DNA of 64,000 bases from Eubacteriales bacterium (GCA_045578385.1 JAZNKD010000038.1:3341-67340); one strand, 5' to 3'; counted from the stretch's first letter, positions 266 to 24,834 are shown. Notes: generated by a model from the sequence alone, not told the origin. Made by a program: numbers and translations.

Positions 266-396
266 AAAGAAAAAACTCGGTAAGCAAAAGCCATTCCCGA
301 GATTTTAAATCACTCATCTAACAGGAATTGGCACCTTATTAAACACAGGTTGCCGGGCTTCATAGGGCCAGTCCCTCCGCCACTCTTGATAAGGAT
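266..396 (-). promoter_or_regulatory. SAM-I (S-box) riboswitch with intrinsic terminator, leader of metK
   Basis: The minus strand reads CTTATCAAGAGTGGCGGAGGGACTGGCCCTATGAAGCCCGGCAACC...AAGGTGCCAATTCCTGTTAGATGAG, matching the S-box core. It is followed by the hairpin CTCGG...CCGAG plus a T-run (266-301), immediately upstream of metK. Confidence 0.9.
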
Positions 397-560: not shown

Positions 561-1793
561 TTATTTAATTACTACGTGCTTTGGAAGACCGTTTTCATAT
601 TTTACGTCGGTCTCGCCGATAATCAGCGGCTTGAGATATTCAATACATTCATCGGTTACACCGTTTCCTCGCTCGTTGATGAAGCACTCGGGAACGGTTT
701 TGATTTCATTTGCAATACTTCTTATGTCTGCTATGCCGTATGATACTGCATAATCAGCAGAATCTGCTCTATCTATCGTCGCCATAACGCCCGTATTTCC
801 AAGAAGCGCATAAGATACCGCATTTTTTCCTACTCCGACAGATTCATCTATATCCGTCCTTGAGGCAATATGAGCAGCGCAGCGCTGAGGAAGACTAAGC
901 TCTATTGAACGTACCTTACAGCCAACTCGCTCTTTAACGATATTTTCAAGCACCTTTCCCGTGCCGGAAAGATATTTATGGCCGAATGCATCAACCGCGC
1001 CCGACTGACCGCCGCTTCCTACGTATTCTCCGTCTGCAAATCTAATTCCCTCGGAAGCACATACAAGCACCGCAGGATTCTTTTCCATAGCCGCCTTTAC
1101 GTCCTCAATGAATTCATCTGTGTCAAACGTGCGCTCCGGCAGGTATATAAGATTAGGGCCCGCACCCGAAAGAGATGCGAGTGCCGAGGACGCTGTCAAC
1201 CATCCCGCGTCTCTGCCCATAATCTCAATGATAGTAACCGCTTTAACCGTGTATACGTTAACGTCGCGGAAGATTTCGGTTACAGAGGTTGCAACAAACT
1301 TTGCCGCAGAGCCAAATCCGGGGGTATGATCGGTAGCCATAAGGTCGTTGTCTATAGTCTTCGGTACACCTACGACGATAAGCTCATAATTATTGTTTTT
1401 AGCATAATCGGAAAGCTTAAGAACCGTGTCCATAGAGTCGTTTCCGCCTATGTAAAAGAAATACCGTATATCGTATTTTTTGAAAATACCGAGAAGCCTC
1501 TCGTAAGTTTCTGAATCGTCGGCATAGCTTTTAAGCTTTTTTCTGCAAGAGCCCAAAGCTGCCGCAGGTGTGGTCTCAAGTGTCGAAAGCCAGACTTCAT
1601 CCGTAAAATGCGAGCTAAGGTCAACAAGACGTTCTGCAAGCAAACCCTCGATGCCGTTTTTCATACCGTAAAGCGATTTGATAACTCCGTTCTTATTTGC
1701 CTCGGCGCATCCTCTGATAACGCCCGAAAGCGTTGCGTTGATAGCAGACGTCGGTCCGCCCGACTGGCCTACTACCGCGTTTCCCTTTAACAT
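561..1793 (-). CDS. pfp: 6-phosphofructokinase, probably pyrophosphate-dependent (PFP type)
   Basis: 410 aa. The N-terminus GQSGGPTSAINATLSGVI and the motifs YIGGNDSMDT and VPKTIDNDL are present. Lys rather than Gly in PKTIDND is the known signature of PPi dependence. Confidence 0.8.
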   Translation of the reverse strand: MLKGNAVVGQSGGPTSAINATLSGVIRGCAEANKNGVIKSLYGMKNGIEGLLAERLVDLSSHFTDEVWLSTLETTPAAALGSCRKKLKSYADDSETYERLLGIFKKYDIRYFFYIGGNDSMDTVLKLSDYAKNNNYELIVVGVPKTIDNDLMATDHTPGFGSAAKFVATSVTEIFRDVNVYTVKAVTIIEIMGRDAGWLTASSALASLSGAGPNLIYLPERTFDTDEFIEDVKAAMEKNPAVLVCASEGIRFADGEYVGSGGQSGAVDAFGHKYLSGTGKVLENIVKERVGCKVRSIELSLPQRCAAHIASRTDIDESVGVGKNAVSYALLGNTGVMATIDRADSADYAVSYGIADIRSIANEIKTVPECFINERGNGVTDECIEYLKPLIIGETDVKYENGLPKHVVIK

Positions 1794-1838
1794 AGAAAAC
1801 CTCCGTTTTTTAATTTTAAAATATATATTCAGGCAGAA

Positions 1839-2726
1839 TTAATCGAGCAAGTCTTTTTCTTTAAAGTCGTAATGTGAATTGCAGAAGTGGCATATAGCTG
1901 TCAATACTCTGTCTTTTCCCTCTTTTTCCTGCTCGTCAAACATCGTTTTTATTTCCGATTCACCAAGCCCTTTTATCTTTTTTCTCATGCGCTCTCGCGA
2001 ACAGTCGCACTTATATTCCACCTCTATCGTATCGAACAAATCAAACGGTATATCCTTCATTGCAATATCAATTATTTCCTCATTTGAAAGACCCGAGGCA
2101 AAGAGCTTTGATACGTTTGAAATATCTATAGCGTTTCGTTCAATTAGATCTACCGTTTTATCGTCCGGGAAAGGCAGAAGCTGAATAAGCACACCGCCTG
2201 CTGCACGGCAGGAAAAATCCGTATCAACGAGAACGCCGAGAGACAATACCGTAGGTATCTGCTCGCTCTTTGCAAAATAAGTCGCAATATCTTCGGCTAC
2301 CTCACCCGTAACTATTTCAATGGTTCCGCATTGAGGCTCTTTTCCTCCGATATCTCTTATCATATAGAAGGTCCCCGCGCCGATAGCTCCGCCGACGTCG
2401 AGCTTGCCGTTGGGCTTTCTTTTCGGGTCTGCCGACGGATTGTCAATATAGCTTTTTACGTTACCGTAATAATCTGCTACCGCGAGCATCTTTGAAATTT
2501 CTCCGTTTGAATTAAATCCAACCGTCAGCGTATCACCGTCTTCAGGAAGCATAGTTCCTATCATAGAAGCCGCCGTAATCAATCTTCCGAGAGCTGCCGT
2601 GGCAGTAGGAGCTGTTTTATGCACCTCTAACATTCCGTTAACCAGCGCTGTCGAATTTATAACAAGAACTCGCGCAGAGCCGTCCCTCGTCATTCCCCTT
2701 GTAATTAAAGCTTTATCGTTTCCCAT
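1839..2726 (-). CDS. hslO: Hsp33 redox-regulated chaperone
   Basis: 295 aa with the C-terminal zinc centre CDCS...CHFC, typical Hsp33 length and fold signature. Confidence 0.9.
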   Translation of the reverse strand: MGNDKALITRGMTRDGSARVLVINSTALVNGMLEVHKTAPTATAALGRLITAASMIGTMLPEDGDTLTVGFNSNGEISKMLAVADYYGNVKSYIDNPSADPKRKPNGKLDVGGAIGAGTFYMIRDIGGKEPQCGTIEIVTGEVAEDIATYFAKSEQIPTVLSLGVLVDTDFSCRAAGGVLIQLLPFPDDKTVDLIERNAIDISNVSKLFASGLSNEEIIDIAMKDIPFDLFDTIEVEYKCDCSRERMRKKIKGLGESEIKTMFDEQEKEGKDRVLTAICHFCNSHYDFKEKDLLD

Positions 2727-3517
2727 ATCGGATTCACCTCTTTCTTACATCTTGCTACTACATATATTCTCTCTGCATTATCATCAGCATCGGTGAAATC
2801 AAAATCGGAATATGCTCCGATAAATTCAAGAGAATTGCGTTTCAGCGCATTTCTTATTGAGCGCAGCGTATACATGCGCTCCCTTTGAACTTCATCGTAT
2901 CTTTCGTATTTTCCATCATTCCCCTCACAGAAAAGCGTAATATAGAAATCGCAAAGCTTAGTGTTCTTATTGTAATAATTCTGCCAAATGCACATAGCGC
3001 TCTCGTTTTCTATAACGTAGGTTTCGTCTGCGTATATATTTTCAAATTTGTATTTTCCGTTTACGTCAAAAATAAACAAGCCGTCGGGGATAAGATAATT
3101 ATGCACCAAATCAAGCGTTCTGTCAAGATCTTTCGCACCTGTCAGATGATTTATACCGTCAAGGCAGCATACTGCAACGTCAACGGTACCGTAAAGCTCA
3201 AATTCACGCATATCCTGCATAAGCCAAAGGATTTTTTCAGCGCAACCTTCATCTATAGCTCTGTTTCTTGCAATATCGAGCATTTCAAAGGAATAATCCA
3301 CGCCTGTCATATCATAGCCGCGTTTTGCAAGCTCCAAGGTCATACTTCCCGTTCCGCATCCAAGATCAAGAACAAGCTCGGGCTTTCCAGATTTATAATA
3401 TCTACTCATTATGGCTTCAACAAAGTCAGCCCAGGCAGAATAATTTATGTCGCCGTTAAACTTATCGTAAAATGGCGCAAGTAAATCGTAGATCATATTC
3501 TCGCGTGCAATCAGCAC
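2705..3517 (-). CDS. Class I SAM-dependent methyltransferase (substrate unknown)
   Basis: Contains the SAM-binding motif I VLDLGCGTGSMT. The start is uncertain: GTG at 3517 or ATG at 3496. It lies 5 nt after the helicase stop and overlaps the hslO start by 22 nt. Confidence 0.8.
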   Translation of the reverse strand: MLIARENMIYDLLAPFYDKFNGDINYSAWADFVEAIMSRYYKSGKPELVLDLGCGTGSMTLELAKRGYDMTGVDYSFEMLDIARNRAIDEGCAEKILWLMQDMREFELYGTVDVAVCCLDGINHLTGAKDLDRTLDLVHNYLIPDGLFIFDVNGKYKFENIYADETYVIENESAMCIWQNYYNKNTKLCDFYITLFCEGNDGKYERYDEVQRERMYTLRSIRNALKRNSLEFIGAYSDFDFTDADDNAERIYVVARCKKEVNPIWETIKL

Positions 3518-3522
3518 TCTCC

Positions 3523-5751
3523 TTATTCAAATCTTTCGAGTATTTCATCGGCTAACAAACGGTCCTTTGCGTACGCTATTCGCAAAAGCTCCGGCGGTAT
3601 ATACTCATCGTATTTATCAAAAATAGGACATTCTCCGTCTCGCACCAGAGTTTCGGTATCTATTCCCTCTCTGTCGAGTATCGCGCGAATACCGAAAAGC
3701 AAATTCTTGCCTGCGTCGCCTTTGGCTTTGAACTTAATATAATAGCATCCCTCGCTCTGTATATCCGAAATTCCGAGCTCACCTGCATATTTTTGCAGAA
3801 ATCTTCGCAACGTTCTGAATGAGCGGGTACCGAGCCAAGGAAACAAACAGTAGCTTTGTCCGCCGAGATAAACGACCATATTCTCGTTCATTCTAGCATT
3901 TTCCGCGACTCTGCGTGCGTTTTCAAGCCTTACCTTTGCATTTTCTCCGAGAAATCCGTAATTTTTACCATTAAAGAGCACGTCCCGCATCGCAAGGAGA
4001 AGCTTTGTATGAATTTCTCCGCTGTCTCCGGGCCAGGAAACTTCCATTTTCCCGTCAACACGTTTAACGAAAATCAGCTTTCTCTGTACGTCAACCTCTT
4101 TAACTTCCCATACTCTGCCGGCAAGGGCAAATCTGTCACCAACCGGGGGCGGTGTAGTTATCGTTCCGATTTCCTCGCTGTCGCATCTTACCGTGAAGTC
4201 CTCGCTGTCCTTAAATACTGCGTAGAATTTGAAGCTGTTTATAATTCTCTCGCCCTTAAGACCGATTATGATTTTCTTTTCCTCGGTAAACTCAAGGTAG
4301 TCATCGTTTATCATAGACACGAGAAGAATCCGGTAATCCTCTTTTTCGATAGCCGAAAGGGGCGGTAACGACAAAATTCTTCCTGCAAGCTCCTTTGCGG
4401 AAAGCTCTCCGCCTGACGCGAGAACACTCAAAGTCTGATGAAAAGCAAGGCTCAGCGGCATTTGCTTAAATCTCGGCGGCTCTATAAATCGTTCCGAGGA
4501 GTAAAGCTCAACGATGCCTATTCCGCGTAAAAGATCCCACGGAATTATTTCGGGAAGCGGAGCGTTAGGCAAAGGCGTCTCCTCTCTGTAAAGCATTATC
4601 ATTTCGGGCGGCGTTCCACGTCTTCCCGAGCGCCCGAGTCTCTGAAGAAATCCTGAAACCGTAGTGGGAGAGCCAACCTGGCAAACTCTTTCAAGTCTGC
4701 CGATGTCGATTCCGAGCTCCATCGTTACCGTAGCGCAGGTTACCGCTTTAGTAACACTCTCGTCCTTCATTTTCGCCTCAGCATCTTCTCTTAAAGCCGC
4801 AGAGAGATTTCCGTGATGTATAAGGAAAATATCCTCTTCCCCGCGCGCCTTTGCTATTTGACGTAACGTTGCGGTCACGTATTCCGTTTCTTCTCGCGAA
4901 TTTGAAAAAACAAGGGCCTTTTTATTTCTCGTTGCGTCGTAAAGAAACTCATAACCGGGATCAAGAACGGCTCTGCCGCCTCTTTCCTCCTGAGAAGCAG
5001 TTTCAAGCGCCAGTGACTGCGTTTCGTTAGGATTCTGGATATAGTAATGCTCTGCACCGAGTCGCCAACGCAGCTTCGTCTTAGGCGGCACGGGAGCGAC
5101 CGTTTTGCGACCGCTGCCTGCGCCGAGCCATTTTGCCGCAAGCTCAATATCACCTATTGTTGCACTTAAGCCAACTCGCCTCGGCGAACGTCCTATAAGC
5201 CTCGCAATTCTTGAAAGCTGACAAATTACCTGATTTCCTCTGTCCTCACCAAGCATAGCGTGTATCTCATCAATAACTACGTACTTAAGCGAGCCGAAAA
5301 GTCTGGGTATATCGTTAGCTCTGTTCATAAGCATCGATTCAAGGGATTCTGGAGTTATCTGCAAAATTCCTTCGGGATTCTTAAGAAGCTTTGACTTATG
5401 AGATTGACTAACGTCTCCGTGCCAATGCGTAACCGTAATACCCGACATATCGAGAAGCTCCTCAAGCCTGTAAAACTGGTCGTTAATAAGTGATTTGAGA
5501 GGAGCAATATAAAGCACCGATACTGAGCCTTTCGTATTCTCGGTGTTTACTATATCGGCAATTATCGGGAAGAATGCGGCTTCGGTTTTTCCAGACGCCG
5601 TGGAAGATGAAAGGAGCAGATTGTCCTCGCTTTCAAGTATGACGTGGGCTGCGGATATCTGTATCTCACGGAGTTCATTCCAACCGTGACCGTATATATA
5701 TTCTTTTATGAAATCGGGAAAAAGCGAGAAAATTCTATCGGCTTCAGTCAT
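3523..5751 (-). CDS. SF2 DEAD/DEAH-box helicase, third gene of the TerB-ATPase-helicase triad (Shango SngC-like)
   Basis: 742 aa. Motifs: I TASGKTEAA, II VVIDEIH, III LSATIG, VI QRLGRSGRRG. The C-terminal ~350 aa have no motif I recognise. Confidence 0.85.
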   Translation of the reverse strand: MTEADRIFSLFPDFIKEYIYGHGWNELREIQISAAHVILESEDNLLLSSSTASGKTEAAFFPIIADIVNTENTKGSVSVLYIAPLKSLINDQFYRLEELLDMSGITVTHWHGDVSQSHKSKLLKNPEGILQITPESLESMLMNRANDIPRLFGSLKYVVIDEIHAMLGEDRGNQVICQLSRIARLIGRSPRRVGLSATIGDIELAAKWLGAGSGRKTVAPVPPKTKLRWRLGAEHYYIQNPNETQSLALETASQEERGGRAVLDPGYEFLYDATRNKKALVFSNSREETEYVTATLRQIAKARGEEDIFLIHHGNLSAALREDAEAKMKDESVTKAVTCATVTMELGIDIGRLERVCQVGSPTTVSGFLQRLGRSGRRGTPPEMIMLYREETPLPNAPLPEIIPWDLLRGIGIVELYSSERFIEPPRFKQMPLSLAFHQTLSVLASGGELSAKELAGRILSLPPLSAIEKEDYRILLVSMINDDYLEFTEEKKIIIGLKGERIINSFKFYAVFKDSEDFTVRCDSEEIGTITTPPPVGDRFALAGRVWEVKEVDVQRKLIFVKRVDGKMEVSWPGDSGEIHTKLLLAMRDVLFNGKNYGFLGENAKVRLENARRVAENARMNENMVVYLGGQSYCLFPWLGTRSFRTLRRFLQKYAGELGISDIQSEGCYYIKFKAKGDAGKNLLFGIRAILDREGIDTETLVRDGECPIFDKYDEYIPPELLRIAYAKDRLLADEILERFE

Positions 5752-5785
5752 TTAAAATCCCTCTCATACTAAATTCTGCCTTGAA

Positions 5786-7141
5786 TTATATATCTATATC
5801 AAACAAATTTACACTTCCGTAGCTTGTTGGCGCATCGTCGTCCGAATCATCGTCTGACGACGTAAATCTTACGTTTTTCAAAAGCTCGGAGAACTTTGCG
5901 TTCTTGTTGTCGTGTAGCACGTTAAGGAACGAAAGATAGTCTCTTATTATTTCTCTCGGAGTAAGCATTTCATCAGCACCCGTGCGAGATCTTGCCATAT
6001 TCACAAACTCTTCTATTTCGGCATCGGTAACGAGAGGCTCGGTTCCGTCTCTCATAGCGTAAAGATTTGTGAGTCTTTTAACGAGCGCCAAAAGCTCCGC
6101 GCCTGAAAGCGTACGTAACCTTATTACTGGTGATGAAAGATTCTGATATCCGTGCGAAGCTGCGTATTTTGAATCCTGAAGTCTGCTTTTCAAGGCATCA
6201 TAGCTGAAAAGTCCTCTTCTAGTATCCTCTAAAAACTGCGGCGTTCCTCCGAAAATCACTCCAAGATTCTTTGCTTTTCCCTGAAGGGTATCATTAAAAA
6301 TAGCGAGCAGCTTTTCGTAATTTGCTTCTCTTGAAATTCTGTTGGGTATTTTGTAAAGGTTTACACACTCATCAATAAATACGATAAATCCAAGATATCC
6401 AAGCTTTACGGAAAGCGATGCGAACAGCTTTATAAAGCCGTACCAGTTATCGTCGTCTATAACACAGCCGACTCTGAATCCAAGAGCTGCATTCGCCTCC
6501 GTTTTATTTGAAAACTCTCCTCTGAGCCATCTGAGGCATGCGCTTTTTTTCTCGGCATTATCCTCAATCATCGCAGTATAATACTCTCCGAGTATTCTTG
6601 CAAAATCAAATCCACCGACGTCGCATTCAAGCTCGGAAAGCATAGCCATAACCTTTCGCTTCAACGCATTCTCAAACTCCGAAGAATCGGGAAGAACACC
6701 CTCCTCCGCGAGCTCATATTGAAGCTTTGCGTAATGGCGCGAAAGTATTGTCGGCAACGCGCCGCCGTCGGGAGACGCTTTGCTAGCTATATTTATCATA
6801 AGCTCTTTATAGGTCGCGAGCCCCGCGCCGTTACCGCCGGAAAGCCGACGCTCCGGAGAAAGATCCGCATCAGCGCATATAAATCCGCGCTCTAAAGCTC
6901 TTCCTCTTATAAGCTGAATAAGAAAGCTCTTACCGCTTCCGTATCTTCCTATCAAAAATCTGCACGCTGCGCCGCCGTCGGCAACGTCGTCAAGATTATC
7001 AAGAAGCGAGCCGAGCTCTTCCTCTCTGCCTATCGCAATATAAGGTGCTCCTATTCTCGGAACAACACCTGCGGAAAGCGACGTTATAAGCGTATTCAAA
7101 ATACGTCTTGGTATTTTTATTCCTGTATTTTCTGAAGCCAT
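5786..7141 (-). CDS. P-loop ATPase of the DUF2791/BrxD-like type (Shango SngB-like)
   Basis: 451 aa with Walker A GRYGSGKS and Walker B GFIVFIDEC. The N-terminus (RILNTLITSLSAGVVPRIGAPYIAIGREEEL) is typical of the family. The start overlaps the upstream gene by 25 nt. Confidence 0.75.
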   Translation of the reverse strand: MASENTGIKIPRRILNTLITSLSAGVVPRIGAPYIAIGREEELGSLLDNLDDVADGGAACRFLIGRYGSGKSFLIQLIRGRALERGFICADADLSPERRLSGGNGAGLATYKELMINIASKASPDGGALPTILSRHYAKLQYELAEEGVLPDSSEFENALKRKVMAMLSELECDVGGFDFARILGEYYTAMIEDNAEKKSACLRWLRGEFSNKTEANAALGFRVGCVIDDDNWYGFIKLFASLSVKLGYLGFIVFIDECVNLYKIPNRISREANYEKLLAIFNDTLQGKAKNLGVIFGGTPQFLEDTRRGLFSYDALKSRLQDSKYAASHGYQNLSSPVIRLRTLSGAELLALVKRLTNLYAMRDGTEPLVTDAEIEEFVNMARSRTGADEMLTPREIIRDYLSFLNVLHDNKNAKFSELLKNVRFTSSDDDSDDDAPTSYGSVNLFDIDI

Positions 7142-8769
7142 TCAATAATCTCCTCGGTGTAATCGTCTATCACCTTAAATCCGCCATCATCCGACTCCTC
7201 GAGAATTACGTCTCCGAAATTATCGGCGAAGGCCTCGTTTATTTTTTCCGCAATTTCTTCGGGCAATCTTTTCTGAACCTTTGCAATAGACAGTACTTTT
7301 ATTTTATCTTTCGCCAGAGCGGCATTAAGAAACTCAATCTCAGCGTCGTTTAGTCCGTAGGTATCAAAGCTTCTATCTTCGCCCAAGGATTCAGATACGA
7401 CCGATTCGTTTTGCTTCTCCCTCTCGGCTTTATCAGCAGCTTCTTCAGCCAAAGCTTCCTCTAAATCCTCCGTTCCCTCAACCAGCCTTGCTGTCATACG
7501 CCAGGAAGCTTTCTCTATTTCTATCGCATCGGAAAAGCTGATTTTTGTATCCTCCGCCTCATAAAGCTTTTCATATTCCGGCATATTCGCGCGCTCGCGC
7601 TCTTTCTTCAGCTTTTCAAATTCGTGCTCGAAGTAACGGTCTATAATTTTTCTCAGCGTATCTGAAAGCTCCTTTATTGCAAGTCTGCTCTTTACGCCTA
7701 ATATAGCGCGTAATTTATTCTCCGTATACTTCAGTGCCGCAGTTATATTCCGTCTTAGCTCGGGAGAGCTTGAAACGGAAGAATAATCAATTTCCAAGAT
7801 ACACTTTACAGTATGAGTACACAAAGAGCCCGGAAATGCCGTTCTCGTAATTCTGCTCACTTCGCTTTTTTCGATAATTTCATCTCTGAAAAGATTTGCA
7901 AATACGAGTTGCATCGCGCCCTCTACGTGTGTTCTGTACATCACCGCATTATCACCGCTTGCATATTTACCTCTGCGCCAGTCGTAATCCGAAAGATATG
8001 CAAGCATAGCAGAGGCCTCGTTTCCGCCCTTTTGTACGTCAGAAAGGTAAAATTCTTTGAATGAAGATACGTTTATTACGTCAAACAGGAAGTCTTTTAT
8101 TTCTTCAAACGGGCAGTCCAATTCATAAACAAGGCAATAATCCTGAACCCATGCCGAAAAATTTATATCGAGTCTTGGCAGCTCGTCTCTATAAGCTCGC
8201 CAAACCTCAACAAGAAGCGTAAGCCCCTCCTCTTTGCCTATCTTTTCAGGCAGGTTGAGTATTTCGTAGGCGTAAAGATAAACGTATGAATAGTCAGTTT
8301 TTAAAAATCTTTTGCGTCTCAGCTCATCCCGCCAGTAAAAATAGTACCTTTTTTGCTCGGCAGTCATCTGAGAATACTGAGGTTTGTATGAATAAAAGGG
8401 GGTAAATTCGCATTTCGGGCATTTATAATCGAAGTATATGAGAGCCGCTTTTCTGAAAGTATCGTAGAAATCAAATCTATCGTGAGACGGCTTTATTGTA
8501 ACCTTACGTATAAGCTTTGCTTTATGAGGAATATAGCTATATTCTGCTTTTGCGTGCTTTTCTGAATCTATATCGGTTTTGTATATAGAAAAGTCAAGCT
8601 TTCTGTCAGCAGAAGATGCCGTGATATCCAGATTATCCGTATCGCCCGCATCAATTATTACGTCACTTACCGGAGTATGAGTTGAAAAGCTTTTAACGTT
8701 CGGCTTCTTTTTCGGGATGAGCTTTGATATATCCCAAAAATCATCTATACCGCCCTTAATATCTGCCAT
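7117..8769 (-). CDS. TerB-N / TerB-C domain protein (Shango SngA-like)
   Basis: I trimmed the ORF to the ATG at 8769, which is preceded by AAAGGAGG. The TerB-N-like core is FYSYKPQYSQMTAEQKRYYFYWRDELRRKRFLKTDYSYVYLYAYEILNL. The TerB-C-like tail is EIEFLNAALAKDKIKVLSIAKVQKRLPEEIAEKINEAFADNFGDVILEE. Confidence 0.75.
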   Translation of the reverse strand: MADIKGGIDDFWDISKLIPKKKPNVKSFSTHTPVSDVIIDAGDTDNLDITASSADRKLDFSIYKTDIDSEKHAKAEYSYIPHKAKLIRKVTIKPSHDRFDFYDTFRKAALIYFDYKCPKCEFTPFYSYKPQYSQMTAEQKRYYFYWRDELRRKRFLKTDYSYVYLYAYEILNLPEKIGKEEGLTLLVEVWRAYRDELPRLDINFSAWVQDYCLVYELDCPFEEIKDFLFDVINVSSFKEFYLSDVQKGGNEASAMLAYLSDYDWRRGKYASGDNAVMYRTHVEGAMQLVFANLFRDEIIEKSEVSRITRTAFPGSLCTHTVKCILEIDYSSVSSSPELRRNITAALKYTENKLRAILGVKSRLAIKELSDTLRKIIDRYFEHEFEKLKKERERANMPEYEKLYEAEDTKISFSDAIEIEKASWRMTARLVEGTEDLEEALAEEAADKAEREKQNESVVSESLGEDRSFDTYGLNDAEIEFLNAALAKDKIKVLSIAKVQKRLPEEIAEKINEAFADNFGDVILEESDDGGFKVIDDYTEEIIEWLQKIQE

Positions 8770-8849
8770 TTTGTTTACCTCCTTTCGAACTTTTAAGTTA
8801 AAAAACGATTTTTTCAGTGTCAAAATTATCAAAAACCCTGTAATGATAA

Positions 8850-8878
8850 ATTATATCACATTTTTCGTTGATTGTCAA
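8850..8878 (-). promoter_or_regulatory. Consensus sigma-A promoter of the TerB-ATPase-helicase operon
   Basis: The minus strand reads TTGACA-N17-TATAAT (TTGACAatcaacgaaaaatgtgaTATAAT), about 80 nt upstream of the ATG at 8769. Confidence 0.7.
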
Positions 8879-8993
8879 TCAATTTAACAATTTTTAAAAT
8901 GATAGCCGAATTTAATCCGGAGTATATAAAAAGCGACCGTCAAGCTTATTTCAGCTTTTACAGTCGCTCTGTTATTTTGCTAAAAACGACGTA

Positions 8994-10684: not shown

Positions 10685-11140
10685 ATGGCAAGTTTCAATA
10701 AGGTTATCCTTATCGGTAACATGACTGCAGATCCCGAGCTTAAGCAGACTGCAGCTGGTATTTCCGTATGCAGCTTCTCTATCGCGGTTAACCGCCGTTT
10801 TGCAAAACCCGAGCAGGGTCAGCAGAACGTTGACTTCATTAACATTGTTACATGGCGTCAGAGCGCTGAATTTGTCAGCCGTTTCTTCAAGAAAGGTAAT
10901 CCCATTCTTGTTTGCGGCCAGCTTCAGACAAGAACCTGGACGGACAATCAGGGTCAGAAGAGATATGCAACAGAAGTAGTTGCAGACGAGGTTTCATTCG
11001 TTACTTCTGCAGCTCAGGGTACTCAGGCTCCCGCAGCAGGCGCTCAGGGTTATACTCCCGATGCATACGGCGCTCCCACTTACAGCACCGGTGGTGCTAA
11101 TTTCGAAGAACTTCCCAGCGACGGAGATCTCCCCTTCTAA
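10685..11140 (+). CDS. ssb: Single-stranded DNA-binding protein
   Basis: MASFNKVILIGNMTADPELK... followed by an OB fold, with the acidic C-terminal tip DGDLPF. Confidence 0.95.
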   Translation: MASFNKVILIGNMTADPELKQTAAGISVCSFSIAVNRRFAKPEQGQQNVDFINIVTWRQSAEFVSRFFKKGNPILVCGQLQTRTWTDNQGQKRYATEVVADEVSFVTSAAQGTQAPAAGAQGYTPDAYGAPTYSTGGANFEELPSDGDLPF

Positions 11141-11228
11141 AAGATCATTTCCGTCCTCTCGCTCGCAAGACTCACTGCGATGCGGGCAATATTGAAATCG
11201 TGAGTCGGAAAGGTTATGGACTATTCTA

Positions 11229-11480
11229 ATGGATAGAAACGATACACAGCGTCCCTCGTTCCGCCCTATGCACAGAAGAAAGAAAGTTTGCATCTTCTGC
11301 CAGGACAAAGTAAACGAGATCGATTATAAGGATATCGCAAAGCTCAGAAAATTCATTTCCGAGCGTGCTAAGATCCTCCCCAGACGTGTTTCCGGCACTT
11401 GCGCTCTTCATCAGAGACAGCTTACTACAGCTATCAAGAGAGCTCGCCAGATGGCACTTCTTCCCTACGTATCCAACTAA
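11229..11480 (+). CDS. rpsR: 30S ribosomal protein S18
   Basis: RRKKVCIFC...IDYKD...[27 protein letters not shown] is the canonical S18 sequence. Confidence 0.95.
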
Positions 11481-11620
11481 TTCGAGATACTTGTTATAAG
11501 ACAATATCAATTTAAACGAAAACAACAAAAGCTTTCGACCTAATATATATTGTCTTTAGCAACAAAAAAACAATTTAAAAACATTAAAGCACTCTGCGAA
11601 AAACACAGAGTGCTTTTTCT
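11481..11620 (+). repeat. Copy 1 of a ~130-nt structured direct repeat ending in an intrinsic terminator
   Basis: TACTTGTTATAAGACAATATCAATTTAAACGAAAACAACAAAAGCTTTCGA...CAATTTAAAAACATTAAAGCACTCTGCGAAAAACACAGAGTGCTTTTT. See copy 2. Confidence 0.8.
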
Positions 11621-11794
11621 TTTCCTCTTCACCTTGTCTCGAACATAATATAATCTCGCTCCTAATATATGCAAATATTTGAAGCCTAAGGACTATTTTA
11701 TAAAAAATAGTTTTCCTTTTCAAAAAAACAGTTGACGAAAGAAGAAAAGCAATGTATAATGTCAGTGATATTTAGAAAGCGAGGTTCTTATATA

Positions 11795-12433
11795 ATGATG
11801 GATTTTGGAAATGTACTGATTTTAGGTGACAGCTATTCCACTTTCAAAGGATTTAATCCCGACGGATATGCCTATTGGTATCCTCAGGGCGGATCGGACA
11901 ATTCCCACACAGATGTCAAGGAGGTTAGCGAAACATGGTGGCATCAGCTTATCAATGAAACGAAGTCAAAGCTCATTCTGAACGACAGCTACTCCGGCTC
12001 GACAATATGCTCAACAGAACGGGAATCAATGCCCGGGACACACTTTAATCTCAGAACCGACAGAATGATAAGCAACGGCTTCTTCAACGAGAACAGAATA
12101 GATACGATTTTTATTTTCGGTGGTACTAACGACTCCTGGATAAACTCACCTGTCGGCAATATAAAATACGGTCAAATTACCGAGGATGATATAAGAATGA
12201 TCCTGCCGGCTTTTTCAGCTCTTATATCAAAGCTCAAAAGCGCCTCTCCTCATTCAAGAATAATTCCGCTTATTAATTGTGATATCAAGCCTGAGGTTGC
12301 GGACGGATTTGAGGAAATCTGCCGCCACTACGAATTGACTTATATAAAATTTGAAGTCCTGGACAAGCTTTCGGGACATCCAAGCCGTAAGGGTATGGAG
12401 CAGATCAAGAGTGCTATTAAAAATTTGCTGTAA
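11795..12433 (+). CDS. SGNH/GDSL-family hydrolase
   Basis: The N-terminal block VLILGDSYS (GDS catalytic Ser) and the later FGGTNDS block are present. I set the start to the ATG at 11795, downstream of a GAGG. Confidence 0.7.
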   Translation: MMDFGNVLILGDSYSTFKGFNPDGYAYWYPQGGSDNSHTDVKEVSETWWHQLINETKSKLILNDSYSGSTICSTERESMPGTHFNLRTDRMISNGFFNENRIDTIFIFGGTNDSWINSPVGNIKYGQITEDDIRMILPAFSALISKLKSASPHSRIIPLINCDIKPEVADGFEEICRHYELTYIKFEVLDKLSGHPSRKGMEQIKSAIKNLL

Positions 12434-12478
12434 GCATTATGCCAATGCCCTCACCGCAGAGGTAGAAAAAATTTGCAC

Positions 12479-12640
12479 TTTCGAGAACGAACGGGCTTGT
12501 TCGACGACAATACTTGTTATAAAACAATATCATTTTAAACGAAAACAACAAAAGCTTTCGAATTTATATGGTGTCTTATACTAGGGTAAAACAATTTAAA
12601 AGCATTAAAGCACTCTGCGAAAGCACAGAGTGCTTTTTTT
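12479..12640 (+). repeat. Copy 2 of the ~130-nt structured direct repeat
   Basis: TACTTGTTATAAAACAATATCATTTTAAACGAAAACAACAAAAGCTTTCGA...CAATTTAAAAGCATTAAAGCACTCTGCGAAAGCACAGAGTGCTTTTTTT. It is near-identical to copy 1 at both ends and divergent in the middle. Confidence 0.8.
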
Positions 12641-12721
12641 CTGCATTCTAAAAGTAATAACTTGACAAAATCCATTTACTTTGATAAAATTAATTGAAAT
12701 TTTTATTTTAGGAGATTAAAA

Positions 12722-14044
12722 ATGCGTTTAGGAAAGAAGAATACAGTTTTAATCAGCCTTATGCTCTTCTCCCTTTTCTTCGGAGCCGGGAATTTGATAT
12801 TTCCGCCGCTTCTTGGGCAGCAAGCAGGCTCTAATACAGCTCTTGCTTTTATAGGATTTCTAATTACTGCGGTATTTTTGCCTGTTTTGGGCGTTATCGT
12901 CGTTGGCAAATTCGGCGGATTAACCGTTCTTTCAAGGAAAGTAGGCAATGTATTTGCTTTGCTATTTACACTCTTAATATACTTGTCAATAGGTCCCGGT
13001 CTTGGAATACCAAGAGCCGGCTCGGTTCCTTTTGAAATGGCAATAATGCCCTATCTGCCGGAGAGCGCAAACGTTACTCTTTGTATGGCGCTTTATACTT
13101 TAGTCTTCTTTGCAATAGTTTTATGGCTTTGCTTGAATCCAGGAAAGCTGGTAAAGCGAATCGGCAATTTTCTTACTCCCGCGCTTTTGATTCTTATAGT
13201 GATAATGTTTGTCGCATTTTTATTTAAAATCGACAAGTCGGTAGCTGCACCCGGTGATTTATACGTTAATGCCCCGTTTTTGCAAGGATTTGTTGACGGA
13301 TATCAGACGATGGACACTATTGCCGCGCTGAATTTCGGTTTAGTTATTGCCTTAACCCTTACTTCTTTTGGCGTAAAAGAAGAAAAGGACGTTGTAAACC
13401 ATACGATTCGTGCAGGTATTTTTGCAGGTGCTGTTTTAACTACCGTATATTTAATGCTGACGATTATGGGCGCTGCTACATCAGGTGCTTATCCCGAAGA
13501 TTCAAACGGCGCAATAATTTTAAGAAGAATTATGTATGATTTGTTCGGCGACTTTGGCGCAATACTTCTCGCTGTGATTTTCACGTTGGCCTGCTTAACC
13601 ACCTGCGTTGGCTTAACAAATTCCATTTCCTCGTTCTTTGAAAAGCAATTTAAAACGCTTTCATATACAAAATGGGTAATAATAATCACGACAGTATCGT
13701 TTTTAATTTGCAACCTCGGGCTGAATATGATTTTATCCGTTTCCATTCCCGTATTAAACGCTATATATCCCGTATCCATAGTTCTAATTTTACTTGGACT
13801 GTTTGATAAATTCTTTAAGGGGCATAACCTCGTTTACAAACTATGTATCTATTCAACAGCGGTTATTAGCGTTATTTACGCTTTGGATCAGTTGGTTAAT
13901 TTTGGCATAGTATCTAAAGTACTATCCTTTATTCCTTTATACAGCCAGGGCTTTGGATGGGTAATAATTTGCGGACTTATGCTTCTCGTTAGTATCCTCA
14001 CGGTTTTTATTCAAAGCAAAACGCAGACTAAGAGAAAAAACTAA
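12722..14044 (+). CDS. brnQ: Branched-chain amino acid transport system II carrier (LIVCS family)
   Basis: 440 aa and polytopic. The N-terminus LFSLFFGAGNLIFPPLLG is typical of BrnQ. Confidence 0.88.
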   Translation: MRLGKKNTVLISLMLFSLFFGAGNLIFPPLLGQQAGSNTALAFIGFLITAVFLPVLGVIVVGKFGGLTVLSRKVGNVFALLFTLLIYLSIGPGLGIPRAGSVPFEMAIMPYLPESANVTLCMALYTLVFFAIVLWLCLNPGKLVKRIGNFLTPALLILIVIMFVAFLFKIDKSVAAPGDLYVNAPFLQGFVDGYQTMDTIAALNFGLVIALTLTSFGVKEEKDVVNHTIRAGIFAGAVLTTVYLMLTIMGAATSGAYPEDSNGAIILRRIMYDLFGDFGAILLAVIFTLACLTTCVGLTNSISSFFEKQFKTLSYTKWVIIITTVSFLICNLGLNMILSVSIPVLNAIYPVSIVLILLGLFDKFFKGHNLVYKLCIYSTAVISVIYALDQLVNFGIVSKVLSFIPLYSQGFGWVIICGLMLLVSILTVFIQSKTQTKRKN

Positions 14045-14253
14045 TAAATTACTTAGAGAGTATAATGCCGAATAATCGCGCCAGAGCGCACTCAAAATAC
14101 TACTATAAAAACGTAGACGAGATTCACCGTCGGCTGCGAATACGCTGAAAAAACGGATTTGCAGAACTTTTGATAAGTTTTACGGTAGCATTCACGCAAA
14201 TGCTGTCAGAACGTGCAAAAACAATACATATAACTAATTAAAGGTAAGAATTT

Positions 14254-14625
14254 ATGTTGAAAATCCGTGAAATACGTATAATAGATCTTATTACTTACTT
14301 TCTTTTGCCCGCAGTTATACTTGCGTCTGTCTGGATTACATACGGTCTGTGGTTAATCAATATACATATTTCAGTCAACGTAATTTCTTGTATAGTATTC
14401 TCTGCTTCGAGCTATTTTCTGCTTAAGCGCTTTGCTATCGGATGCGTTCTGCTTTATAAGGCTGTTGCGCCTGAGTCTATGCGCGATGCATGCAGATTTG
14501 AGCCGACTTGCTCAACGTATATGATAATAGCTATCAAGAAATACGGACTTTTCCGCGGACTTTTCCGCGGGCTTAAAAGGATATCCAGATGCAAGCCGCC
14601 AAACGGCGGAATCGATTATCCGTAA
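14254..14625 (+). CDS. yidD: Membrane protein insertion efficiency factor YidD with an N-terminal two-TM extension
   Basis: The C-terminal half CRFEPTCSTYMIIAIKKYG...LKRISRCKPPNGGIDYP matches the YidD signature. Confidence 0.8.
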   Translation: MLKIREIRIIDLITYFLLPAVILASVWITYGLWLINIHISVNVISCIVFSASSYFLLKRFAIGCVLLYKAVAPESMRDACRFEPTCSTYMIIAIKKYGLFRGLFRGLKRISRCKPPNGGIDYP

Positions 14626-14663
14626 AATTAAATAAACGGTTAAAAAGCAATATAATATAAATC

Positions 14664-14707
14664 AAAGCGGCTGTCCAAAACGTAAAAAATTTTGGACAGC
14701 CGTTTTT
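14664..14707 (+). terminator. Intrinsic terminator after yidD
   Basis: GCGGCTGTCCAAAA...TTTTGGACAGCCG stem followed by TTTTT. Confidence 0.75.
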
Positions 14708-14749
14708 CATTTTATCAAATACTTAACAAATCGTTCTTAACGACTTGCA

Positions 14750-14787
14750 GAAAATCAAAAGACCTTTCCGGGTTAAGAAAGGTCTTA
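14750..14787 (-). terminator. Intrinsic terminator after rpsT
   Basis: AAGACCTTT/AAAGGTCTT stem with a T-run on the minus strand. Confidence 0.7.
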
Positions 14788-14800
14788 AAATCGGCAAAAT

Positions 14801-15064
14801 TTATGCCATTTTATTAAGCTTAAGTGTGAGCTCTGACTTCTTGTGAGCAGCGTTGTTCTTATGAAGAATACCGCGAACTACAGCCTGGTCAACCTTTTTG
14901 ATAACTACAGGATAAAGCTCGGTAGCAGCGCTCTTATCGCCGGCAGCAACAGCAGCGTTGAACTTCTTGATGAAGGTCTTAAGCTGGCTCTTTGCCATCT
15001 GATTACGAAGAGCTTTTGCACGGTTAACAAGAATACGCTTCTTAGCGGACTTGATATTAGCCAT
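14801..15064 (-). CDS. rpsT: 30S ribosomal protein S20
   Basis: MANIKSAKKRILVNRAKALRN... I trimmed the start to the ATG at 15064, which is preceded by AAGGAG. Confidence 0.95.
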   Translation of the reverse strand: MANIKSAKKRILVNRAKALRNQMAKSQLKTFIKKFNAAVAAGDKSAATELYPVVIKKVDQAVVRGILHKNNAAHKKSELTLKLNKMA

Positions 15065-15238
15065 TTTAGTCTCCTTTAAATTTTCATGCCGACTGCTGCA
15101 ACTCATCTACAACGGCTGAGAGGGTCCGTTTTTTGACTCATTGCAACCTAGCCACATTTTTCTACCCAATAATTGTAACATAAAGATAGTTAAAAATCAA
15201 GTCTTTTTTTAAAAAAATTAAATATTTTTTCAAAGCTA

Positions 15239-15267
15239 TTGACAAACTATATTTCATATGATATACT
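15239..15267 (+). promoter_or_regulatory. Sigma-A promoter of ylxM-ffh-rpsP
   Basis: TTGACA-N17-TATACT. Confidence 0.65.
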
Positions 15268-15311
15268 TGTAAAGCGAATTGCTTTACAGTTTCGCTTGGA
15301 GGAAGCTCATT

Positions 15312-15662
15312 ATGTTTGAAAAAAATATGCGCTACGCTTTTTTGCTTGACGCATACGGCGCTGTTCTCGACGAGCATGCAAGAACAATAATGACAGCATA
15401 CTACGAGGATGATTTTTCGCTAGCTGAAATAGCCGAGGGCGAAGGCATCTCCAGACAGGGTGTACGTCATATCATTAAAAAAAGCGAAGAACAGCTTGAT
15501 TTTATGGAATCCAAGCTTAAGCTTTCCGAACATTATTCGGCGCTTGACGAGTTTTATAAAGAGCTTTCGGTTATTGCAGATAATATGGCTTTATCCGTCG
15601 ATAGCAAAGCTAAAACCTATGCCGATAAGATATACGCTCTCCTAAAAAATATCAAGCAATAA
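15312..15662 (+). CDS. ylxM: UPF0122 / YlxM putative helix-turn-helix protein
   Basis: YYEDDFSLAEIAEGEGISRQGVRHIIKKSE, located immediately upstream of ffh as in Bacillus. Confidence 0.88.
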   Translation: MFEKNMRYAFLLDAYGAVLDEHARTIMTAYYEDDFSLAEIAEGEGISRQGVRHIIKKSEEQLDFMESKLKLSEHYSALDEFYKELSVIADNMALSVDSKAKTYADKIYALLKNIKQ

Positions 15663-15689
15663 GCAAGAAAATAAGCTACGGAGGTCAAT

Positions 15690-17021
15690 ATGTTCCAAGG
15701 TCTTACGGAAAAATTGGCTAACGCCTTTAAAAAATTCAGAAGCAAAGGTAAACTTACCGCCGCCGACGTTAAGGAAGGTATGCGTGAAGTAAAGCTTGCG
15801 CTTCTTGAGGCCGACGTTAATTTCAAGGTAGTTAAGGAATTTGTTAATTCTGTTACGGAGCGCGCGGTAGGAACTGAAGTTCTTGAAAGTCTTTTGCCCG
15901 CGCAGCAGATAGTTAAAATAGTAAACGAAGAGCTCGTAAGTCTTATGGGCGGCGAGACTCCGAAAATAAATATCAGTCCCAAGCCCCCTACCGTTATTAT
16001 GATGGTAGGTCTGCAGGGTGCAGGTAAAACAACTCACGCAGGTAAGATTGCAAATATGTACAAGGGCAAGGGCAAAAATCCCCTTCTCGTTGCCTGCGAC
16101 GTGTACAGACCTGCAGCCATCGATCAGTTGAAAATAGTCGGCGAATCGGTCGGTGTACCCGTTTTCTCAATGGGAGCAAAAATCTCCCCCGTTGATATAG
16201 CAAAGGCGGGAGTTGAGCATGCAAAAAAGAATGGGCACGATATGGTGCTCGTTGATACCGCAGGTAGACTTCATATTGATGAAGAACTTATGGCGGAGCT
16301 TGTTAAAATCAAGGAAAACGTTGAGCCTGCAGAAATACTCCTAGTAGTTGACGCTATGACTGGTCAGGATGCGGTAAACGTTGCAAAGGCGTTCAACGAT
16401 CTTCTTGATATAACGGGTGTTGTTCTTACAAAAATTGACGGAGATACAAGAGGCGGTGCCGCACTTTCCGTTAAATATATTACAGGTAAGCCCATCAAGT
16501 TCATCGGAACAGGTGAAAAGATGGACGCACTTGAGCTGTTCCACCCCGATAGAATGGCTTCAAGAATTCTCGGCATGGGCGATATTCTTTCTCTTATAGA
16601 AAAGGCTGAGGCTGCATTTGACGAGAAGAATGCAAAAGAGCTTGAAAAGAAGATGCGCGAGCAAACCTTTACACTTGACGACTTCCTTGAGCAGATGAGA
16701 AGTCTTAAGAAAATGGGTAACCTCGAGCAGATTCTCGGTATGATGCCCGGTGTTAAGCAAAGTCAGATAAAGGATGCCAAGATAGATGAAAATCAGATGA
16801 CTCACATTGAGGCTATTATCCTTTCTATGACAAAGAATGAGCGCAACAAGCCCGAAACCATCAACGGCTCCCGCAGAAAGCGTATTGCTGACGGCTCGGG
16901 AACGACTGTCGAAGAGGTTAATAAGCTTCTCAAGCAATTCGAGCAGATGAAAAAGATGATGAAGCAATTTTCGGGTGGTATGGGTAAGCGTCGCTTCGGC
17001 GGACTTAAGCTTCCCTTTTAA
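15690..17021 (+). CDS. ffh: Signal recognition particle protein
   Basis: 443 aa with GLQGAGKTT, DTAGRL and TKIDGD GTPase motifs and a Met-rich M domain. Confidence 0.97.
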   Translation: MFQGLTEKLANAFKKFRSKGKLTAADVKEGMREVKLALLEADVNFKVVKEFVNSVTERAVGTEVLESLLPAQQIVKIVNEELVSLMGGETPKINISPKPPTVIMMVGLQGAGKTTHAGKIANMYKGKGKNPLLVACDVYRPAAIDQLKIVGESVGVPVFSMGAKISPVDIAKAGVEHAKKNGHDMVLVDTAGRLHIDEELMAELVKIKENVEPAEILLVVDAMTGQDAVNVAKAFNDLLDITGVVLTKIDGDTRGGAALSVKYITGKPIKFIGTGEKMDALELFHPDRMASRILGMGDILSLIEKAEAAFDEKNAKELEKKMREQTFTLDDFLEQMRSLKKMGNLEQILGMMPGVKQSQIKDAKIDENQMTHIEAIILSMTKNERNKPETINGSRRKRIADGSGTTVEEVNKLLKQFEQMKKMMKQFSGGMGKRRFGGLKLPF

Positions 17022-17078
17022 TTAGGTTATTTTTTAATAAAATAAAATACAAACATTCATTTTTTGGAGGAAAAAACA

Positions 17079-17324
17079 ATGGCAGTAAAAATCAGACTTA
17101 AAAGACTTGGAGCTAAGAAGTCTCCCTTCTACCGTGTTGTAGTTGCAGACGAGAGATCTCCCCGTGACGGTAAGTTCATCGAAGAAATAGGTTACTATAA
17201 CCCCCTTACCGATCCCGCTGACATTAAGATTGACGCAGAAAAGGCTACTAAGTGGCTTAATAACGGTGCTCAGCCTACAGATACCGTTAGAGCTCTTCTT
17301 AAGAAGTCCGAAATCATTAAGTAA
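17079..17324 (+). CDS. rpsP: 30S ribosomal protein S16
   Basis: [24 protein letters not shown]... is canonical S16. Confidence 0.95.
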
Positions 17325-17371
17325 TTCAACTAAATCGGAAGGAACGTTTCTTTTAGAAACAAGGATAAAGC

Positions 17372-17605
17372 ATGGAGCTTAAGCAGGTACTTACAGATAT
17401 TGCGCGTGCTATCGTGGACACTCCCGACGCTGTTAACGTTATCGAAAACGTTGACGGTGATAACGTTGTGCTTACTCTTGTTGTTGCGGAAGATGATACC
17501 GGTATGGTAATCGGACGTCACGGTAAGATAGCTAAGGCAATCCGCCAGGTTATGAAAGCCGCTGCAAATACGTGCGGAAAACACGTAACTGTAGAAATCA
17601 AATAA
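17372..17605 (+). CDS. ylqC: KH-domain RNA-binding protein (YlqC family)
   Basis: 77 aa with the GMVIGRHGKIAKAIR GXXG KH motif, located downstream of rpsP. Confidence 0.88.
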   Translation: MELKQVLTDIARAIVDTPDAVNVIENVDGDNVVLTLVVAEDDTGMVIGRHGKIAKAIRQVMKAAANTCGKHVTVEIK

Positions 17606-17610
17606 GACAT

Positions 17611-17646
17611 AAGTCAGGCATATCTATGCCTGACTTTGTTTTTTTA
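17611..17646 (+). terminator. Intrinsic terminator after the KH-domain gene
   Basis: AAGTCAGGCATA/TATGCCTGACTT stem plus a T-run. Confidence 0.8.
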
Positions 17647-17735
17647 TTAAATAATAACAAAATATCACATAGATTTTTAAACAATTACAACAATCTTTTC
17701 TCAAAAAAATGACCGTTTTTGCAGAGGTTAAAATT

Positions 17736-19226: not shown

Positions 19227-19235
19227 CAAAAACAA

Positions 19236-19278
19236 AGGCTGAGTCACCAAAAAGCTTAAGACTCAGCCTCTATTTTTT
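19236..19278 (+). terminator. Intrinsic terminator after glpK
   Basis: AGGCTGAGTC/GACTCAGCCT stem followed by a T-run. Confidence 0.75.
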
Positions 19279-20547: not shown

Positions 20548-20623
20548 GCTGGTGTGGCTCAGTTGGTAGAGCAGTTGATTCGTAATCAACAGGTCACCGG
20601 TTCAAGTCCGGTCACCAGCTCCA
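20548..20623 (+). tRNA. tRNA-Thr (anticodon CGT), CCA encoded
   Basis: Manual cloverleaf: acceptor GCTGGTG/CACCAGC, D arm GCTC..GAGC, anticodon stem GTTGA/TCAAC with loop TTCGTAA, T arm ACCGG TTCAAGT CCGGT. It is followed by a terminator hairpin. Confidence 0.9.
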
Positions 20624-24530: not shown

Positions 24531-24540
24531 CAGAACCTCC

Positions 24541-24588
24541 AAAAAACGCAACAAACGGCATTCAAGTCAACTAACCTGCCTTTGTTGC
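24541..24588 (-). terminator. Intrinsic terminator abutting the RBS of the downstream gene
   Basis: On the minus strand, GCAACAAAGGCA...TGCCGTTTGTTGC forms a ~12-bp stem followed by GTTTTTT and then GGAGG. Confidence 0.75.
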
Positions 24589-24620
24589 GCTTTCTATTTG
24601 TTTTGAAAAATCTAAGTAAA

Positions 24621-24821: not shown

Positions 24822-24834
24822 AAATTATTTGAAA

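Follow-up and report, generated by a model that had tools for sequence, protein, structure and literature searches.

In the 64,000-nt stretch of DNA from a Eubacteriales bacterium analysed here (GCA_045578385.1 JAZNKD010000038.1:3341-67340; referred to as the window hereafter), three adjacent and co-directional genes on the minus strand almost certainly constitute the sngABC triad of Shango, a validated anti-phage system in which a TerB protein is combined with an ATPase and a helicase (Millman et al. 2022, in E. coli). The sngA gene (7117-8769), for which the list of open reading frames (ORFs), Pfam, PADLOC, and an AlphaFold2 (AF2) model are available, encodes 550 aa when counted from its ATG; the sngB gene (5786-7141) encodes a 451-aa P-loop ATPase of the BrxD family (BrxC_BrxD, former DUF2791); and the sngC gene (3523-5751) encodes a 742-aa superfamily 2 (SF2) helicase of the Lhr/BrxHI type. 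An earlier note on this DNA had described three minus-strand genes with these coordinates and lengths, and the ORF list agrees with it exactly. The longest form of the sngA ORF begins at TTG 8832; however, the placement of the Shine-Dalgarno sequence AAGGAGG (8778-8784, minus strand; direct sequence reading), which lies 8 nt 5′ of ATG 8769, favours the latter start. The 25-nt overlap between sngA and sngB and the 34-nt gap between sngB and sngC, both pointed out in the same note, can be read from the sequence; GAGGAG is located 9 nt 5′ of the sngB ATG, and SngA and SngB are predicted to be translationally coupled. The three genes share one near-consensus sigma-70 promoter, and their A-B-C order is that of the annotated plasmid triads.

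The identity of the triad was examined by profile searches. The PADLOC models for SngA (3.3e-48; residues 85-545 against model positions 69-527 of 528), SngB (1.7e-162, 539 bits; residues 8-435 against 4-429 of 439), and SngC (1.1e-232, 773 bits; residues 7-736 against 5-712 of 720) matched the respective proteins over nearly their full lengths, and the next-best models were BrxD for SngB (139 bits, 6.5e-41) and BrxHI for SngC (407 bits, 3.8e-122). In Pfam, the first protein gave TerB_N (9.2e-17) and TerB_C (3.1e-7), both above the gathering scores, the second gave PF10923 BrxC_BrxD (9.2e-146), and the third gave DEAD (1e-30) and Helicase_C (1e-15). Thus, the SngA, SngB, and SngC profiles and the gene adjacency that make up the definition of Shango in PADLOC and DefenseFinder were all found, and the profile hits anticipated in the earlier note, together with the name Shango given there, were borne out. 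The locus is a further copy of the already known system, without new architecture. An anti-phage phenotype has also been described for the Shango of P. aeruginosa PA14 cDHS1 / PAO1 (Johnson et al. 2023), and the published protection in E. coli and P. aeruginosa is modest, approximately 10-100-fold; the original prediction of the triad is credited to Anantharaman 2012 where Millman et al. cite it. Neither a mechanistic nor a structural study of Shango turned up in our literature survey. As had also been remarked for nucleases, proteases, and pores, no nuclease, protease, pore, or NADase domain was detectable in SngA, SngB, or SngC.

In SngC, the helicase motifs quoted previously are all present (ASGKTEAA at residue 52, VIDEIH at 159, SAT at 196, and QRLGRSGRRG at 370); motifs I, II (DEIH), III (SAT), and VI are invariant in the clade described below and conserved in the plasmid homologues. 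The C-terminal part of approximately 350 aa, which had been regarded as uncharacterised, could be assigned by the AF2 model and Foldseek. In the model (predicted local distance difference test score, pLDDT, 72), two RecA domains (RecA1 and RecA2, ~1-400) are followed by a winged helix (~433-496), a beta-barrel (~519-564), and an alpha/beta domain resembling the Lhr C-terminal domain (Lhr-CTD; ~580-742), so that the C-terminal half is modelled as an Lhr/BrxHI-type module of winged helix-turn-helix (wHTH), beta-barrel, and Lhr-CTD. The best Foldseek match was the Lhr core of M. smegmatis (5V9X; E 1.6e-23, TM 0.67, full length), followed by MrfA and Hel308. At the sequence level, the likeness to solved helicases (MrfA/YprA, Lhr, and Brr2) is limited to residues 15-394, and the Lhr equivalog TIGR04121 scores 212 bits against a cut-off of 850, over residues 15-382 only. 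SngC is not an Lhr ortholog, though its fold is Lhr-like along the whole length. According to a comparative study from 2026 (PMC12839542), BrxHI has exactly this layout, namely an SF2 core followed by a wHTH, a HAS-type beta-barrel, and an Lhr-CTD, and SngC, BrxHI, DruE, and DpdJ have been reported as one defence-specific clade of SF2 helicases. The possibility of a hidden effector in the SngC C-terminus or the middle of SngA was considered and rejected: Pfam is empty in these regions, the fold of SngC is Lhr-like, and SngA has no significant PDB neighbour.

SngB contains the Walker A motif GRYGSGKS (residues 65-72) and the Walker B motif FIVFIDEC (residues 252-259), as quoted in the earlier note, and a comparison of 13 sequences, two of them from plasmid Shangos, showed the core GxYGSGK and DE in each. 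The NCBIfam model BREX_BrxD gave 140 against a cut-off of 350. BrxD itself has been described as an ATPase of the ORC/Cdc6-type AAA+ class that is tightly linked to BrxHI as a dyad and for which a helicase-loading role has been proposed (PMC12839542).

SngA, the fastest-evolving component of the triad, begins with the motif DDFWDIxKLxPKKK, followed by a disordered variable linker (~25-75), TerB_N (121-224), a helical middle, a low-confidence helical linker (~405-470, of which 412-450 form one long helix), and TerB_C (434-541). In the AF2 model (pLDDT 80), the last 80 residues in TerB-C adopt a helix-helix-helix-hairpin-helix topology with a winged-helix-like fold. No significant PDB neighbour was found for SngA by fold or by profile; the weak winged-helix matches, to MarR and CggR by both fold and profile, agree with the topology of the last 80 residues. 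No transmembrane segment is present, the maximum KD19 being 0.85, in SngA. The N-terminal motif (window 8725-8769, minus strand; SngA residues 1-22) is clade-invariant, with W12, L17, and P19 being invariant, and the disordered hypervariable linker of approximately 50 residues comes directly after it. The motif is missing from the SngA of Paenibacillus and from that of the Klebsiella plasmid, and it could be a docking motif.

The earlier note had considered the three genes an autonomous unit, and this holds for the 5′ end of the operon but probably not for its 3′ end. On the upstream side, an intrinsic terminator of ispE (8930-8970, minus strand), in which a U-run comes after a hairpin (-23 kcal/mol; z = -3.9 relative to shuffled sequences), lies between the ispE stop codon and the sngA promoter; therefore, the Shango operon is predicted to be insulated from ispE transcription. 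The promoter (8850-8878, minus strand) consists of TTGACA (8878-8873), a 17-nt spacer, and TATAAT (8855-8850), with an extended -10 TG, and it is the sole 12/12 promoter match within the 8.8 kb scanned, in line with the perfect promoter recognised before. Upstream of sngA in all 12 related lineages, it scores 11-12/12 and has the 17-nt spacer and the TG, also in lineages with another gene on the upstream side. The spacer AACGaaaaaTRTG and the motif ttATCATTACAGgg just 3′ of the -10 box are also conserved across lineages (window ~8830-8850, L001, L011, L017, L020, and L023), and a TGATA-N5-TATCA inverted repeat overlaps the -10 box in the window. The stretch around the -10 box might serve as an operator, or it might reflect conservation of the transcription start. 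On the downstream side, the sngC gene is followed by a gene for a class I S-adenosylmethionine (SAM)-dependent methyltransferase (MTase; 2705-3496, minus strand; Pfam Methyltransf_25, 1e-18) and by hslO, which encodes the Hsp33 chaperone (1839-2726, minus strand; ORF call, with PF01430 HSP33 in orthologous loci). Both are neighbours, and the MTase is outside Shango. The MTase start is ATG 3496 (MIYDLL) rather than GTG 3517, as inferred from L029 and L017, and hslO overlaps the MTase gene by 22 nt. No terminator was found between sngC and the MTase gene, the junction being unstructured (z +0.95); because of this and of the distance of only 26 nt between the sngC stop and ATG 3496, the MTase gene is probably co-transcribed with sngABC, as judged from the sequence. 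The block sngABC-MTase-hslO-pfp-metK is conserved and anchored by hslO.

This conservation was examined in the relatives, of which the close ones are labelled as metagenome-assembled genomes of Clostridia, Ruminococcaceae, or Oscillospiraceae. An ispE-anchored scan with one genome per GTDB species provided six relatives with ispE identities of 50-70%. Five of them carry the full sngA-sngB-sngC-MTase-hslO-pfp block downstream of ispE, and the locus retrieved for the sixth, L011, stops within sngA. The same block was seen in eight more contexts that were reached through Sng homologues, and in every Shango-bearing genome or contig sampled, the triad is directly upstream of MTase-hslO. The clade orthologues amount to more than 100 clusters (SngC, 78-100% identity; SngA, 47-100%). 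The mean pairwise amino acid identities among six genomes were 80% for SngC, 76% for SngB, and 51% for SngA, as compared with 73% for hslO, 71% for pfp, 55% for ispE, and 74% for rpsF, and the Sng identities followed the hslO/pfp average with r = 0.94-0.97. The ratios of nonsynonymous to synonymous substitution rates (dN/dS) against the closest relative, L017 (dS 0.6-1.0), were 0.024 for SngC, 0.030 for SngB, and 0.085 for SngA, and those of hslO, pfp, ispE, and MTase were 0.035, 0.057, 0.107, and 0.112, respectively. The triad is vertically inherited, and strong purifying selection acts on the Sng proteins and their expression. The earlier note had read the triad as a small inserted module without any mobility gene. 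No mobility genes were indeed found among the window ORFs scanned, but a recent insertion is ruled out by the continuous GC content, this absence, and the clade-wide synteny; the inheritance is ancient, vertical, and clade-wide.

The junction between ispE and sngA is variable. An EamA transporter gene is located there in L003 (2294-3262), L018 (5926-6900), and L019, the last of which also carries a PadR-HAAS-DUF4097 set in this gap (1275-4639). In L011, the gap holds an 8.4-kb insertion (10883-19264) that encodes a glycyl-radical enzyme together with its activase as well as AraC regulators and that contains several small ORFs.

The history of the triad can be approached from the hslO side. An HslO-anchored scan of metagenome contigs gave 80 loci with HslO identities of 38-77%. 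The MTase gene is directly upstream of hslO, often overlapping it, in nearly all of these 80 Clostridia loci, whether Shango is present or not, which assigns the MTase to hslO rather than to the defence module. The MTase-hslO combination (window 1839-3496, minus strand; loci L026-L105) is an ancient gene pair that is kept down to 38% HslO identity independently of Shango. The MTase was accordingly rejected as a candidate fourth Shango gene, and its PADLOC mad2 match covers the generic SAM-binding fold only. In the same scan, sngC was found upstream of the MTase gene only where the HslO identity was at least 64%, and the triad was not present in the more distant loci having 3-10 kb of upstream sequence.

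A comparison of the ispE-hslO interval for presence or absence, which had been proposed beforehand, clarified that the triad is not invariant, as one nested lineage is without it. In L029, ispE directly adjoins the MTase gene with an ATGA start-stop overlap and with no triad between them, and three loci from a search with the MTase of this lineage (L106, L107, and L108, in records of 77 and 152 kb) have the arrangement rpsR-ssb-rpsF | ispE-MTase-hslO-sod-pfp-metK, again with no triad. Throughout this Shango-negative lineage (L029 85-968; L106 2992-3870; L108 8165-9004), ispE overlaps the MTase start by 4 nt. Its closest sampled relative, L109, has the triad, with sngC overlapping the MTase start. 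When MTase, HslO, and Pfp were concatenated, a neighbour-joining tree placed the lineage inside the Shango-positive clade, as the sister of L109, in 100 of 100 bootstraps; an earlier tree of HslO and MTase had placed L029 inside the Shango clade in only 70 of 100. Parsimony favours a single ancient gain, long retention, and a single clean loss at the level of a lineage, the gain having occurred in the ancestor of the gut Oscillospiraceae-like clade, directly upstream of the older MTase-hslO pair. Since one nested lineage has lost the triad cleanly, the triad is dispensable. In the lineage without the triad, ispE has diverged to an unusual extent (41-44% identity to that of the window, as compared with 50-57% in comparably distant Shango-bearing genomes), and for this reason the ispE-Shango segment may have been replaced by recombination there.

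Outside the clade, the triad co-occurs elsewhere, which the earlier note had treated as a point on which its claim depended. A tblastn search with SngB retrieved 693 plasmid records (449 from Klebsiella and 144 from Salmonella; 542 predicted to be conjugative), all at less than 60% identity, and both of the two records opened contain full triads (TerB-N protein, ATP-binding protein, and DEAD helicase) that are not accompanied by the MTase gene or hslO. The enterobacterial plasmids with SngB homologues are mostly of the conjugative IncF type; L025 (CP056521.1 78270-84091) is an example of a complete plasmid Shango-like triad, and one of the opened triads adjoins IS26 and is near a TIR-domain gene. 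In contrast to plasmids, 50,697 phage genomes yielded no SngB homologue. The SngA family comprises approximately 2,200 representative clusters at E ≤ 1e-3.

From these results, we consider it likely that the locus is a functional Shango defence operon that works broadly by the following ATPase-helicase scheme. SngB would be an ORC/Cdc6-like AAA+ ATPase, by analogy with BrxD, and would use ATP either for loading SngC onto foreign or replicating phage DNA or for activating it there. SngC, probably a 3′-to-5′ translocase on single-stranded DNA (ssDNA) by analogy with Lhr and MrfA, would move along the strand and disrupt replication or recombination intermediates. SngA may license this pair as a sensor or scaffold, a role proposed because of its fast evolution, its variable linker, and its winged-helix-like module at the C-terminus. 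Protection would then come from direct interference with the DNA metabolism of the invader, with no dedicated toxic effector. The step in which SngB loads the SngC translocase, which rests on the analogy with BrxD and BrxHI, is given an even chance.

Several points weigh against this picture. On the genomic side, the locus does not behave as defence systems typically do, with their patchy distribution and their association with defence islands or mobile elements: it has no defence island and no mobile-element genes, its synteny is clade-wide, its dN/dS is of housekeeping grade, and no other PADLOC match and no defence or mobility genes occur among the window ORFs scanned. The validated Shangos are distant from the window locus, so that the anti-phage role assigned here follows from homology; the Klebsiella plasmid homologue is only 38% (SngB) and 31% (SngC) identical to the window proteins. 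On the protein side, SngA has no structural neighbour and its role as a sensor is therefore a guess, SngB has no PDB relative by sequence or profile search, and the SngC model is of moderate confidence only (pLDDT 72) with low-confidence loops. The loader-helicase relation of BrxD and BrxHI is itself a published hypothesis rather than a demonstrated activity.

As an alternative, the triad of this clade could be a domesticated module, a constitutively expressed machine for DNA repair, replication rescue, or the stress response that has an Lhr-like helicase at its centre, is co-expressed with the Hsp33 operon, and for which phage defence is no longer, or never was, the main role. The clade-wide synteny, the co-divergence with core genes (r ~0.95), dN/dS values of 0.02-0.03 for SngB and SngC that are equal to or below those of hslO, pfp, and ispE, and the lack of neighbouring defence or mobility genes all fit such a role, as do the conserved consensus promoter, the lack of a terminator before MTase-hslO, and the start-stop overlap of sngC and the MTase gene in L109; moreover, among solved structures SngC is nearest to Lhr, MrfA, and Hel308, which are helicases of DNA repair. 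Nevertheless, a large and successful nested lineage lost the triad cleanly and kept the remaining locus, which shows that the module is dispensable. In addition, the protein family has been validated as anti-phage and is common on conjugative plasmids, SngC scores far under the Lhr equivalog cut-off (212 against 850 bits), and SngA evolves fastest and carries a hypervariable linker, as would be expected of a sensor facing changing targets. Domestication in this sense seems unlikely. A broader version, in which a single ancient capture upstream of MTase-hslO turned Shango from a transient, mobile defence gene into a constitutive, slowly evolving resident of the clade, with the SngB-SngC motor serving either host DNA maintenance or a permanent core immunity on the Hsp33 transcript, is put forward tentatively and is likewise doubtful.

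Exclusion of plasmids or conjugative elements as the main role is a less probable explanation still. The triad would then act on incoming ssDNA, the natural substrate of a 3′-5′ ssDNA translocase, and the structural likeness of SngC to Lhr, which reportedly tracks on ssDNA (Ejaz et al. 2018, as cited in PMC12839542), the modest 10-100-fold effects published against phages, and the count of SngB homologues in phage genomes (0 of 50,697) are compatible with this. However, hundreds of conjugative plasmids themselves carry Shango triads, which is a poor fit with general anti-conjugation activity, and the only published phenotypes are anti-phage. Finally, the view that sngB-sngC is the remnant BrxD-BrxHI module of a degraded type 2/type 6 BREX system beside an unrelated TerB protein, which could appeal to the BrxD (6.5e-41) and BrxHI (3.8e-122) matches and to the linked BrxD-BrxHI dyad in BREX, is effectively refuted, since the two proteins fit the Sng models much better than the Brx models (539 bits as compared with 139 for SngB, and 773 as compared with 407 for SngC; BREX_BrxD, 140 against a cut-off of 350), no PglX, PglZ, BrxC, or PglW is nearby, the neighbours being ispE, rps genes, a small-molecule-type MTase, and hslO, and SngA, which is translationally coupled to SngB, was inherited together with it in all Shango-positive loci.

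The locus is informative in several respects. The Lhr/BrxHI assignment of SngC and the link of SngB and SngC to BrxD and BrxHI narrow the hypotheses to an ATPase-loaded ssDNA translocase without a dedicated toxin, and the deep set of vertical orthologues, with its invariant residues and the hypervariable SngA linker, can guide mutagenesis. The evolutionary pattern is unusual for defence: the triad has stayed at one site across genus-to-family divergence, yet was cleanly lost once. This prompts the question of whether certain "defence" systems perform core functions in the cell or come to do so. If domestication were true, the locus would show in nature how a defence system becomes, or arises from, a housekeeping DNA-processing machine, and it would offer a tractable route to the mechanism of Shango.

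As for the surroundings, the triad is flanked by ispE, the class I SAM MTase gene, hslO, pfp, and rpsF-ssb-rpsR. Of the core-metabolism flanks named in the earlier note, ispE, hslO, and pfp were found directly, and metK is indicated by a SAM riboswitch (RF00162, 74 bits; 311-395, minus strand) at the left edge of the window, which is presumably upstream of metK and fits the pfp-metK synteny of the relatives. In most relatives, an ORF of approximately 180 aa with Sod_Fe_C lies between hslO and pfp (L018 13977-14495; L020 16975-17556; L106 5583-6128). It is absent from the window (1793-1839), L001, and L002; because only ~45-55 nt separate hslO and pfp there, the Sod_Fe_C gene was lost in the sub-lineage of the window. 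The rest of the window is of a housekeeping kind and contains ffh, a glycerol-kinase-like FGGY kinase gene, ksgA, a P-type ATPase gene, lepA, pgm, and mutS2, as well as 6S RNA (24615-24826, minus strand), the large bacterial signal recognition particle RNA (44869-45137, minus strand), tRNA-Thr(CGU) (20548-20623, plus strand), and tRNA-Leu(CAA) (31355-31441, plus strand). The ORFs at 23715-24554 (279 aa) and 30207-31157 (316 aa), both on the minus strand, had no Pfam match at E ≤ 1e-5.

Compared with known systems, the window locus shares different parts with each. TerB-family domains occur in defence in Bunzi BnzA and Dionysus DinB, for which a surveillance role has been proposed, as it is for SngA; however, the partners in Bunzi and Dionysus are transmembrane or pore-forming, whereas SngA is soluble and has nucleic-acid motors as partners, and it carries TerB_N and TerB_C instead of the classical TerB domain. 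Lhr-core and MrfA (YprA) provide the best full-length structural match (5V9X, 6ZNQ) and the best PDB sequence matches to SngC, but SngC is without the DUF1998 or Zn module and is always partnered with SngA and SngB. The BrxD-BrxHI pair of BREX types 2 and 6 is homologous to SngB-SngC and has the same helicase layout and the same tight ATPase-helicase linkage, whereas the BREX core (BrxC/PglY, PglX, PglZ, and PglW) is replaced at the window locus by a TerB-N/TerB-C protein. The closest counterpart is the canonical Shango (Millman 2022; Johnson 2023), which has the same three components and domains, the same A-B-C order, intact ATPase and helicase motifs, and no recognisable effector. The SngA of the window has 550 aa, while that of Klebsiella has 770 aa, and the N-terminal DDFWDIxKLxPKKK is clade-specific. 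The identity of the window proteins to the proteobacterial plasmid Shango is low, as given above. The canonical Shango is found in variable defence hotspots or on plasmids, whereas the Shango of the window belongs to an uncultured gut member of the Clostridia (Oscillospiraceae-like) and occupies a fixed chromosomal site among core genes, from which it is probably read through into MTase-hslO.

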